A stretch of DNA of 61,561 nucleotides, counting the filler, from Circinaria calcarea (Eukaryota), in NCBI GenBank assembly GCA_051942165.1. It is 17 parts of 17 records of this genome, joined end to end, with 100 filler letters (N's around TTAATTAATTAA, not from the genome) between each part and the next. Parts side by side here need not be neighbours in the genome. Positions count along the whole stretch, not along the records: positions 21,814 to 25,344 come from JAVECS010002769.1; 16 more parts are not named here. One strand, 5' to 3'. Shown one piece after another: positions 21,814 to 24,024 of the stretch (positions are counted from its first letter, which is position 1; each line of letters starts with the position of its first letter). Position numbers and translations under genes: made by a program. The notes under the pieces are model-generated. The model had not been told where the DNA came from. It did no database searches and saw nothing but the letters and a program-made list of their open reading frames with translations.

Positions 21814-24024
21814 GGTCTCTGTAACGAGAAACATCCTTGTATGACGGTCACGAATGCTTCAACTGCACACATCACCGCTGAAACAGACAAGATGGTGAAT
21901 CATATCGGAGAGAAGCAGATTTCCGGTCTACTTGATCAAATTACAAAGAACAAGGAAATCACACTCGAAGAGATCATCCACAAAGACTTCCTCTATGGAC
22001 GCGAGTCGAGATTCGACGGAGTGGTCGCTCGCGTCATTGCTCCCAAGGAGAAGATGAGTTCGGAAGAGCTTGCTGGTTATCTTTTCGACTCATGGAAGTT
22101 GATGGCGACTGATAAGAAACCAACTGCAATTCGCGCTGTCAAGGCACAGACAGATGGAAAACCAGTTGAGCTCATGTCTTTTTGCTTGTACCCTGATAAT
22201 TCCGATAAGGACGAGGCGAAGAATTTCTGTTTGGGTCGGGACGATGCTTCGAAGATGCCAAAGAAGGGTGCGAAGAAAAATGATGATAAGAAGAAGGACG
22301 ACGAGAAGAAAGATGGGAAGGAGGAGGATGGCAAGAAGGAGGAGAAGAAGAAAAAGAATGAGAAGGAAAAAGATGGGAAGAAGGAAAAGGAAGAAGTAGA
22401 GGGTGACGGGAAGGCGGAAGAAGATAAAAAAGACAAACGCAAACGTGAAGCTACTGCTGAGGCTAACATAGAGGCAATCAAATATGGTCATATTGGGGTT
22501 GTTCAAACACCAGTTTTGGGGGATACTCAAATGGGTCGCATGGGTGAGGCTCCAACTGCTCTTCTTCAGAGAGAGGCCACAGCCAACGCCCTCGCAGAGC
22601 CTATCGATTGGAAGAAAGTCAGCCATGGAGCTGAAGGTGTCGCCTGTACTGTTGGCGGACTCGTTCCAGGGGTCGGCCTCCTTGTCGACGGTGTCTGCCT
22701 AGCAGGAGCTGCCCTTCGGCACCACAAGGCCAATCACAAACGAGACGCCGATCCGAGCTTGTTTAGTTTTATCGGGAAAGCTGGAAGGGCACTTTTTAAA
22801 GAATCCCCGGACCTAATATCCTCGGTTGGTGGCGTTGCAAATCAAGCCAAGGCTAACCACGATACAAAGAAAGCACAACAGCAGCAACAGAAACAACAGA
22901 AACCGCAGGGTGGCAAGCGTTCTGCAATTGCCAAGGCGGAAGCCGAGATACTTCAAAAGCGGGAGGCATTAGCTAATGCATTGGCCGCAGCGGATCCTAA
23001 GGTTTTGGCTACTCTGAGGAAATATAGTGGAAAGATCTCGGCGGATGTGGTCGGAGGAGGCCCTGATCGACCCCAACAGCCTCCTTCTCCTTACAAGCGT
23101 GATCTCAACGCGTTTCTCAAACAACGATCCAAGAATTCTCGCCCTGCAAACCCTCAAGGTGCTCCGAGTACTGGTGCAGCACGTCGTGGCCTTGCAAAGC
23201 GTGCGCTCCTTCAACGAGAGTTAGCTACCCGAGATGTGGAATATCTTGTCGCCCGCGACCCAAACGTCAAGTCGTTCATCAACGGTATTGGCGACATGCT
23301 CAGTAGCGTCGTCAAGCGTGATGGTACTGAGATATCTGCTCGCGACATTCAGCGCGCAATCAGTAATCCATCATTCAAATCCTTTTTCAAAGAACGAGGC
23401 AACTACATCAAGCGCGATGGTACCGAGATCTCTGCTCGCGACCTACTACTGATAGCTCGCGATCCATTGATCCAGACTCTCTCCAAGAAGAGTGCCCTAA
23501 GTACCTTCATTAAGCGCGCTCAGAAGGGTGAAAAAGGATTGGGCGAACATCATATCCGCGCGCTCGCTTCTCAAATCGCCAGTGAGGCACAACAGCATCG
23601 TAGGGGCTATAGAAAGCAAGGACAGAAGAACTATGAACAGAGGAAGCCTAAGCACGGGACCCACCAGCAAGGAGGAGAAGCTAGCAAAAATGCGGCCAAG
23701 ATGGCTGGTGCTGCTACAAATGGTGGCTCACCCGTAGGCGCTCCTGCACCTCTCCCTGCCGGTGCTCCAGTCACTGGTGCTGGTGGCTCCGGTCCTGAAA
23801 GTGCCGGTGCTATCCCCGCTCCCGGAGCTGCTCCTCAGGCTGCTGCCGGCGCCGCCCCTAAAGAAGCCACCCTTGGTGCCCGAAGCGGCAACAGCACTGT
23901 CAAGGTCGAGAAGAGAGACGAGCCGAAACCCGAATCGAGCGTCTGCAAAACCGGAAAGCAGATCCCCATTTTTGGGGCTCTGATTGATTCGGGATGCAAG
24001 GCTGTAAGGAGCCTCATTGGGTAA
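21814..24024 (+). CDS. Putative Kex2-processed multi-peptide precursor (KEP-like polyprotein), 5' truncated, >736 aa
   Basis: Open from the contig edge (GLCNEKHPCM...). About 10 KR sites, several followed by X-A/X-P dipeptide runs (KREATAEA, KRDADP, KREALANALAAADP, KRDEPKP), plus ARD sites and an internal KRDGTEISARD duplication. Signal peptide not visible because of truncation. Confidence 0.75.
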   Translation, partial: GLCNEKHPCMTVTNASTAHITAETDKMVNHIGEKQISGLLDQITKNKEITLEEIIHKDFLYGRESRFDGVVARVIAPKEKMSSEELAGYLFDSWKLMATDKKPTAIRAVKAQTDGKPVELMSFCLYPDNSDKDEAKNFCLGRDDASKMPKKGAKKNDDKKKDDEKKDGKEEDGKKEEKKKKNEKEKDGKKEKEEVEGDGKAEEDKKDKRKREATAEANIEAIKYGHIGVVQTPVLGDTQMGRMGEAPTALLQREATANALAEPIDWKKVSHGAEGVACTVGGLVPGVGLLVDGVCLAGAALRHHKANHKRDADPSLFSFIGKAGRALFKESPDLISSVGGVANQAKANHDTKKAQQQQQKQQKPQGGKRSAIAKAEAEILQKREALANALAAADPKVLATLRKYSGKISADVVGGGPDRPQQPPSPYKRDLNAFLKQRSKNSRPANPQGAPSTGAARRGLAKRALLQRELATRDVEYLVARDPNVKSFINGIGDMLSSVVKRDGTEISARDIQRAISNPSFKSFFKERGNYIKRDGTEISARDLLLIARDPLIQTLSKKSALSTFIKRAQKGEKGLGEHHIRALASQIASEAQQHRRGYRKQGQKNYEQRKPKHGTHQQGGEASKNAAKMAGAATNGGSPVGAPAPLPAGAPVTGAGGSGPESAGAIPAPGAAPQAAAGAAPKEATLGARSGNSTVKVEKRDEPKPESSVCKTGKQIPIFGALIDSGCKAVRSLIG

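Follow-up and report, generated by a model that had tools for sequence, protein, structure and literature searches.

We analyzed a 61,561-nucleotide stretch of Circinaria calcarea DNA (assembly GCA_051942165.1, filler included), here called the window, which consists of contigs of about 3.5 kb, sorted by size and joined by N44-TTAATTAATTAA-N44 spacers (artificial stop codons) every 3.6 kb. It was taken from a 31.5-Mb fungal assembly (G000) of 5,512 contigs. The contig C2769 (JAVECS010002769.1), at window positions 21814-25344 and flanked by spacers at 21714-21813 and 25345-25444, carries an open reading frame (ORF P0001, 21814..24024, plus strand) of 736 amino acids with its stop codon at 24022-24024. 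This ORF encodes most of a putative secreted precursor whose predicted products include two peptides, A and B, each with a C-x16-C core. Its 5′ end is cut by the contig start, the first base of C2769. The first 94 residues of the precursor were found outside the window on contig C3084, as a four-residue exon 1 and a further 90 residues, separated by a 54-nt intron with a GT donor and an AG acceptor. Because C3084 and the start of C2769 overlap exactly over 141 nt and homologs hold both parts, the two contigs presumably adjoin. The C3084 part encodes a hydrophobic, signal-like stretch and the start of the N-terminal domain (N-domain); a hydrophobic N-terminus, as read from the sequence, is likewise found in the annotated homologs P0003 and P0005, which share the signal start MKYAF. 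We infer a secreted precursor of about 830 amino acids.

The putative signal peptide is followed by a four-Cys N-domain, a charged linker, and then by Kex2-type sites and X-A/X-P ladders around amphipathic peptides. P0001 contains 13 KR/RR sites, enough for the at least four fragments by which Kex2-processed repeat proteins (KEPs) are recognized, and six X-A/X-P ladders, the signature of Ste13 after a Kex2 site, including those before A and peptide C, with none before B. All parts lie on the plus strand. The C-terminal 142 residues of the N-domain, which has about 200 in total, are encoded at 21814..22239 and predicted to form an alpha/beta sandwich of the KP4/LDL/Y3/Gnk2/DUF26 type. A K/D/E-rich linker with KRKR at its end follows (22240..22446), recognized from its sequence and from similar linkers in relatives. 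The next section (22447..22572) comprises, besides the ladder EA-TA-EA, a Cys-free peptide that is conserved (G-x-I-G-V...G-x-M-G) and has the LxxR site LLQR at its end; this peptide (22465-22572), of which 17/42 residues are identical in both P0003 and P0009, is a further candidate product. Kex2 motifs in their accepted, expanded form include LxxR (PMC8528282). The ladder EA-TA-NA-LA-EP (22573..22602) leads to the predicted mature peptide A of 45 amino acids (22603..22737; alignment A8 of five sequences), which includes the type A core Cys278-Cys295 (22645..22698) and is followed by KR at 22738-22743. Behind it lie a DA-DP ladder and peptide C, an amphipathic helix (hydrophobic moment 0.70 over 11 residues) with a Gln/Lys tail and KR (22744..22920), which by eye resembles the first peptide of P0019, and the six-step ladder EA-LA-NA-LA-AA-DP with peptide D and KR at its end (22963..23100). 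Three diverged RDP/RDGTEI units, KR-separated and forming amphipathic helices (23257..23517), are the best self-repeat of the precursor (score 65) and span 87 of the approximately 830 residues (10%). The end of the precursor is formed by an LxxR site (LGAR) and a short spacer with KR at 23911-23916 and an out-of-register D-EP-KP-ESS (23872..23940), and by the C-terminal peptide B (23941..24021; eight sequences), which comprises the core Cys711-Cys728 (23944-23997) and a cationic amphipathic tail.

Units related to RDP/RDGTEI also occur in a second Kex2-type secreted polyprotein of the same genome (L003:64-1965, minus strand, on G000:C292), which has RD...PSFKSF...KR units in common with the precursor (40% over 90 amino acids). 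This paralogue ends in acidic RDFEE repeats and has neither an N-domain nor a C-x16-C core nor a Pfam family.

Relatives of the precursor were collected with the whole protein (five matches among 8,000 scored), with the N-domain (11 of 196), by cluster look-up, with a seven-row peptide profile against 1.84 billion representatives (seven matches at E ≤ 0.001, four of them the query rows), and with a type A profile (five matches of 3,000 scored). One candidate, P0016, is a Gly/Cys/Trp tandem repeat that scored via 14 weak stretches and was removed as an artefact, leaving 16 other proteins. P0003 from Varicellaria rhodocarpa and P0005 from Icmadophila ericetorum belong to Pertusariales lichen fungi; the other relatives are metagenomic proteins that were probably called ignoring introns, so their ends are uncertain. 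The closest relative, P0015, is a fragment with type B. Among the 13 N-domain proteins, seven have a type B core, two a type A core and five neither strict core, and only the window precursor, among 17 precursors, holds A and B together. One of the five, P0011 (N-domain 44%), has a divergent C-x17-C at its C-terminus (residues 1038-1056), possibly a third sub-type, which was excluded from the core counts. P0017, P0018 and P0019 are precursors of 183-187 residues with a signal-like start and no N-domain that carry type A, which suggests that type A moves as a module; apart from the core pair, the precursors P0018 and P0019 contain no Cys at all. In the C. calcarea assembly, which is fragmented and in which few candidates were scored, neither a second copy of A or B nor a small precursor was found. 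Scans of JGI metagenomes gave 89 pattern matches, none of which was confirmed; the single type A DNA pattern match there (L014:2680-2712) lies on the non-coding strand of a bacterial secretion-system gene and was discarded as chance.

The first-pass annotation had pointed to the two C-x16-C segments as homologous peptides sharing C-x2-G-x2-[VI]-P-x2-G-x-L-[VI]-D-x2-C with identical spacing. Both segments indeed translate in the single open frame P0001, and the motif matches twice in the six-frame translation of the window and nowhere else there. The two cores are identical at 7/18 amino acids and 21/54 nucleotides, and their four Cys are the only ones of the precursor outside the N-domain. When the Cys were kept in place and the inner 16 residues shuffled, 191 of 200,000 permutations reached the score of the pair, and four Cys placed at random were equally spaced in 815 of 200,000 trials. 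Treated as an unguided self-repeat, it lacks significance, since 100 of 300 shuffled precursors contained a self-match of at least the core score of 39; the extended pair scored 45, about 1.5 standard deviations above the shuffled mean (37.2, standard deviation 5.3). A 35-base pattern fitted to the pair matched the 31.5-Mb genome twice, both times in the precursor gene, as often as its reversed control.

Comparison of 13 cores, five of type A and eight of type B, put this observation on a broader basis. C1, G4, [VI]7, P8, [VI]14 and C18 are common to all 13, and, together with the stronger conservation of B relative to its preceding linker, this agrees with the earlier proposal that the family is kept under selection. 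The exact motif was over-fitted: it is present in 3/13 cores and in 1/11 outside the window, since G11 fails in four of the five type A cores (Asp) and D15 in six of the eight type B cores (Gly). A looser pattern fitted post hoc, C-x2-G-x2-[VI]-P-x-[FVI]-x2-[LVA]-[VI]-x3-C, describes all 13. An R/KR site and a ladder had been noted before each core. This holds for A, with the monobasic LLQR, the ladder EA-TA-NA-LA-EP and 14 residues to the first Cys, but not for B, where the dipeptides after KR, DE-PK-PE-SS, are one residue off the X-A/X-P register.

The cores fall into two sub-types. Type A peptides are internal, 45-49 residues long and have a hydrophobic core, a net charge of +1 to +4 and a best 19-residue hydropathy of 1.40-1.95 (+1 and 1.95 for the window peptide). 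Their start is set by ladders that end at the identical residue in the window, P0017 (RR-DADP) and P0018 (RR-AADP), and a basic His/Lys tail and KR follow the core in 5/5. Peptide A consists of a basic N-helix, a G-x-x-[VI]-P-G turn, a hydrophobic second helix and the His/Lys tail; the hydrophobic stretch of type A contains one or two conserved Asp. Type B peptides form the last 28-31 residues of their precursors, with a net charge of +2 to +5 and, past the Pro, an amphipathic segment with a hydrophobic moment of 0.41-0.51 (five measured). Peptide B of the window is identical to that of P0015 at 21/28, of P0003 at 18/28 and of P0009 at 14/28 positions, compared to 57/104, 22/104 and 16/104 for the linker before it. 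Type B is thus 50-75% identical across relatives versus 15-55% for the preceding linker and about as conserved as the N-domain (97/142 in P0003, 76/142 in P0009), a pattern that clearly indicates purifying selection at the protein level. In 6/8 type B precursors, KR/RR is missing within 120 residues upstream of the core and a [LV]xxR site with a charged spacer of 51-93 residues is present instead, which suggests that B is released differently from A.

To obtain structural information, type A was modelled with AlphaFold2 from its five sequences; the whole-protein alignments A5 and A6, in which type A was misplaced, were left out of the folding. The model contains helices at 3-18 and 25-44 connected by a loop that corresponds to the G-x-x-V-P-G stretch (predicted local distance difference test score, pLDDT, 66; predicted template modelling score, pTM, 0.29), and with one Cys per helix, Cys15 towards the end of helix 1 and Cys32 within the second turn of helix 2. 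With low confidence, type A, the only sub-type modelled, would be a helix-loop-helix; a closed hairpin goes beyond what the model supports. The helix-turn-helix peptides proposed initially are supported to this extent, with the corrections that mature A has about 45 rather than 18 residues and that two chemically different sub-types exist. A fold search with the 45-residue model retrieved generic helix pairs (best Z 5.4) and was uninformative. The N-domain was modelled from P0005 (66% identical; 14 rows) as a confident alpha/beta domain with pLDDT 78 and pTM 0.82. Against 48,161 chains (VIA), the top seven rows were all KP4/LDL/Y3/DUF26/Gnk2 structures: Zt-KP4 (Z 7.6, root-mean-square deviation 3.5, 100 aligned residues), LDL lectin (6.6), Y3 (6.1), KP4 (5.3), two DUF26 proteins (5.1 and 5.0) and Gnk2 (4.2), followed by an unrelated structure at Z 3.0; Foldseek also placed Zt-KP4 first (E 0.021, probability 0.90). 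The N-domain is predicted to have a KP4/Gnk2-like fold: the match list is coherent, but a Z below 8 is not proof. The fold group comprises antifungal proteins (toxins) and lectins (PMC13211469), Zt-KP4-1 inhibits fungal growth (PMC12382754), and 8% of the Xanthoria secretome consists of KP4-like proteins (bioRxiv 10.1101/2024.08.16.608140). In Pfam, the precursor, its parts and ten relatives had no family above the cut-off; a PDB sequence search with peptides A and B and their profiles gave chance-level rows only (best E 0.14-2). The ESM Atlas returned no usable feature match for the N-domain and P0018, and its structure rows (template modelling score ≤ 0.34 on a poor model) show neither absence nor novelty.

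Whether A and B are related was assessed from their family profiles. Column shuffles reached the observed similarity in 747 of 200,000 trials, and in 2,974 of 200,000 once the rows of the window and of P0015 were removed (p 0.004-0.015 given the Cys). MAFFT set 4/4 type A fragments Cys-to-Cys and gap-free on the B block. We consider a common origin of A and B probable, if weakly supported; A is probably related to B at a distance rather than through recent copying within the gene. The alternative that A and B are unrelated, and that Cys spacing and Gly/Pro turn converged because few solutions are open to a helical hairpin with one disulfide, appears unlikely, though it would affect only the history of the peptides. 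It is in line with the hidden Markov models of A and B, which do not detect each other (≤ 3.7 bits; hhalign probability 3.5-7.7%), with the different charge and conserved residues of the sub-types, and with the fact that similarity within the window pair exceeds that between the families, as the 3/13 occurrence of the first motif illustrates. The shuffles and the Cys-to-Cys placement, the identical spacing in 13/13 cores and the presence of both types in one precursor family argue against it. The assumption of an old duplication within one gene finds little support, as both types occur together in just one of the 17 precursors and their profiles are mutually blind; taken together with the presence of A in small precursors, this fits capture of a module at least as well as duplication. 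In 5/5 carriers, A adjoins a ladder-released amphipathic peptide of type C, in the order A-C in two large precursors and C-A in three small ones, which points to a cassette that moved between genes. B would be the peptide that the large precursor ancestrally carried at its C-terminus, and A a cassette common to it and to small two-peptide precursors.

Based on the KR/RR sites, the ladders, the fixed boundaries of A, the residues conserved in 13/13 cores, the conservation of B and the A model, the precursor is very probably processed into peptides, and A and B are likely to be single-disulfide helical hairpins. The putative signal peptide would direct the protein into the secretory pathway, as suggested by its sequence and two annotated homologs. 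Oxidation in the endoplasmic reticulum could join the four Cys of the N-domain as two pairs and close one pair in each of A and B, no other Cys being available. Kex2 might then cut in the Golgi at KR, RR and LxxR, Kex1 trim the basic ends, and a Ste13-type peptidase remove the X-A/X-P ladders, which may mask the peptides until late secretion. Such sites are processed in the Golgi by Kex2, Kex1 and Ste13 in the established pathway (PMC6339444, PMC9769878), and a gene with a kexin P-domain and a DPP-IV-type gene are present in the C. calcarea genome. Processing would yield one folded domain of the KP4/Gnk2-like type together with about six helical peptides, among them A and B as helix-loop-helix hairpins with a Gly/Pro turn and one disulfide clamp. 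The second helix of A, hydrophobic, of membrane-spanning length and placed between basic ends, and the cationic, amphipathic B could bind and permeabilize the membranes of neighbouring bacteria, fungi or algae, acting within a mixture. Charge and hydropathy, the fold group of the N-domain and the Ece1 precedent suggest such a membrane-active antimicrobial role, for which we see even chances. Our best explanation as a whole, held with the same reserve, is that the gene encodes an Ece1-like secreted polyprotein of a lichen-associated ascomycete that delivers membrane-active peptides against neighbouring microbes.

Several observations weigh against this explanation, among them the above-mentioned failure of the A and B profiles to find each other. 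Five of the 13 N-domain proteins contain neither strict core, so the hairpins are either dispensable or were lost to gene-calling errors. Without a conserved ladder or a nearby dibasic site, the release point of B is uncertain. The pTM of the hairpin model is only 0.29. The Z of 7.6 for the N-domain is within the range that the tool calls common, and neither KP4 (PF09044) nor Hce2 (PF14856) was matched by Pfam in P0001, P0003, P0005, P0008, P0009, P0011 and P0012; since KP4-like groups 3 and 4 are mostly described without Pfam domains (PMC12382754), this excludes only groups 1-2. The net charge of A, just +1 to +4, and the conserved Asp in its hydrophobic helix are unusual for a cationic lytic peptide. 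Finally, Ste13 ladders in ascomycetes are described as generally dedicated to pheromones (PMC6339444).

Other functions were considered. The Kex2 products could coat hyphae or air spaces of the thallus as water-repellent or adhesive surface peptides, with the hairpins as building blocks, similar to Rep1 of Ustilago maydis, a Kex2 polyprotein whose amphipathic peptides have a hydrophobin-like role (PMC12153327, PMC9769878). The several amphipathic, near-neutral helices (C, D and the RDGTEI units) and the hydrophobic core of A would suit this function. However, Rep1 is described without Ste13 ladders (PMC6339444) and its peptides are near-identical repeats, whereas those of the window precursor each differ; a fused domain of the KP4/Gnk2-like type and a cationic B also fit poorly, so that we regard this as improbable. 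Somewhat less probable still is a function as signals that act on receptors of the fungus or of its photobiont partner, in which the disulfide would hold a receptor-binding loop in place, comparable to alpha-pheromones with two Cys. In favour of this, pheromone-like precursors are marked by Ste13 ladders and two Cys are conserved in some alpha-pheromones (PMC6339444), conservation of the peptides is highest in the loop G-x-x-[VI]-P, and 18 of the 47 KP4-like proteins of Xanthoria are up in the thallus (bioRxiv 10.1101/2024.08.16.608140). At 28-49 residues, however, the peptides are far longer than the pheromone examples in PMC6339444, and they are unrepeated and of membrane-type hydropathy. 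A two-chain killer toxin of the SMKT or K1 type, in which B, as a membrane-inserting hairpin, would stay bound to the N-domain as the targeting part after Kex2 had removed the middle peptides as spacers, is the least probable of the three: the alpha/gamma/beta order and fold group of SMKT (PMC13211469), the location of 7/8 type B peptides in N-domain proteins (the eighth, P0015, being a fragment) and the standing of N-domain and B as the most conserved parts would agree with it, but the N-domain model folds completely alone, all Cys would pair within parts, and 5/13 N-domain proteins lack B, besides P0011 with its C-x17-C.

The precursor resembles several known systems and differs from each of them. 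Like Candida albicans Ece1, which is cut at seven KR sites and releases an amphipathic lytic peptide (PMC12153327), it is a putative secreted polyprotein that would be cut at KR into unlike peptides of which at least one is an amphipathic helix. In contrast, Ece1 has 271 residues, candidalysin is Cys-free, and the description of Ece1 includes neither a ladder nor a folded domain; this distinction rests on that description and on Pfam and PDB scans without a match. Candidalysin is a Cys-free, KR-flanked amphipathic helix of 31 residues from an Ece1 orthologue, whereas A and B have a Cys pair, 45 and 28-35 residues, and an unrelated precursor. With KEPs, including alpha-pheromone precursors, it shares many KR/RR sites and Ste13 X-A/X-P ladders and, judging from its signal-like start, probably the signal peptide (PMC6339444, PMC9769878), but its products are long and mutually unlike and a folded domain is fused in front. 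The KEP definition (Le Marquer 2019) asks for three or more similar fragments that make up 15% or more of the protein; here, by our own count, C-x16-C occurs twice and the RDP/RDGTEI units cover 10%. The N-domain is presumably secreted and disulfide-bearing and similar in predicted fold (Z 4.2-7.6, 80-100 aligned) to KP4, Zt-KP4 and Ecp2-Hce2, LDL, Y3 and Gnk2/DUF26, but it shares only 3-9% identity with these proteins, lacks PF09044 and PF14856, and has another Cys layout, extra N- and C-terminal helices and a 600-residue peptide array behind it. The killer preprotoxins SMKT, K1 and K2 are Kex-processed, of the same fold group and have a hydrophobic helix thought to attack membranes (PMC13211469); their alpha and beta chains build one fold, whereas here a complete domain is followed by many ladder-flanked peptides. 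Plant alpha-hairpinins are disulfide-closed helix-loop-helix defence peptides of 33-41 residues (PMC11886644), but need C-x3-C...C-x3-C and two disulfides, whereas A and B have one Cys pair in 13/13 cores and a hydrophobic core.

The genomic surroundings on C2769 and C3084 were also inspected. On C2769, the start of a downstream ORF (25117-25344, plus strand) without Pfam match is truncated by the contig end. About 1.5-2 kb upstream of the precursor and on the same strand, C3084 carries a gene for an RTA1-like lipid exporter (PF04479, E 1e-16; L011:2391-3035, minus strand); a self-protection role is speculation from one locus and what is generally held of this family. A UstYa gene (PF11807), the neighbour expected of a dikaritin precursor, was not found on either contig within the roughly 2.5 kb upstream and 1.3 kb downstream that they cover. 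Genome-wide, UstYa/DUF3328 (PF11807) gave 71 exon-level matches, often several per contig, a large repertoire of peptides made by ribosomes and modified after translation (RiPPs) that fits reports for Icmadophilaceae. Genes across a spacer are not neighbours and were rejected as context for the precursor. The preceding contig encodes at 18843-21713 (plus strand) a protein that by eye has a hydrolase-like start, a P-loop and TPR-like repeats and may be similar to fungal NOD-like receptors; an ORF at 13668-14447 (plus strand) looks secreted and is presumably zinc-metalloprotease-like by eye, with HELVY in place of HExxH, and one at 33626-34378 (minus strand) has a Cys-rich stretch and may encode a small secreted protein.

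Analogies exist in animals. In venom and skin precursors of the prepromelittin type, usually with one peptide each, an acidic X-A/X-P ladder masks an amphipathic peptide, and cecropin-type peptides combine a basic N-helix, a Gly/Pro hinge and a hydrophobic second helix without a closing disulfide. Venom- or skin-type peptide families had no match above threshold in Pfam, with one sub-threshold Mastoparan_2 score (E 0.38). A rather doubtful but wider view is that lichen-forming fungi have a venom-like delivery system, in which a KP4/Gnk2-fold domain, fused to a shuffled array of ladder-masked peptides that includes the A/C cassette and a new family of helical hairpins with a single disulfide, would lyse or police bacteria, fungi or algae of the thallus, possibly with self-protection by the RTA1-like protein.

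The peptides described here constitute a real, conserved family in a precursor design of known type. The family is apparently undescribed: we did not find it in the open papers searched, although members may be listed in the KEP tables of PMC6339444 and PMC7329392 or in Data S4 of the Xanthoria preprint. Surveys published to date rate secreted proteins as wholes rather than by their cleavage products; one of them, a Peltigera preprint, excluded proteins over 800 amino acids (10.64898/2026.06.16.732702). As short synthesizable candidates of 28-49 residues with one disulfide and boundaries set by comparison, the peptides make it directly testable how photobionts and microbiota are controlled by lichen fungi. 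If they are active, cytolytic or antimicrobial Kex2 polyproteins would extend from Candida to mutualistic fungi, Ste13 ladders would be used beyond pheromones in ascomycetes, and the movement of peptide cassettes from precursor to precursor would be documented. As surface peptides, they would instead be relevant to the water repellency of the thallus.

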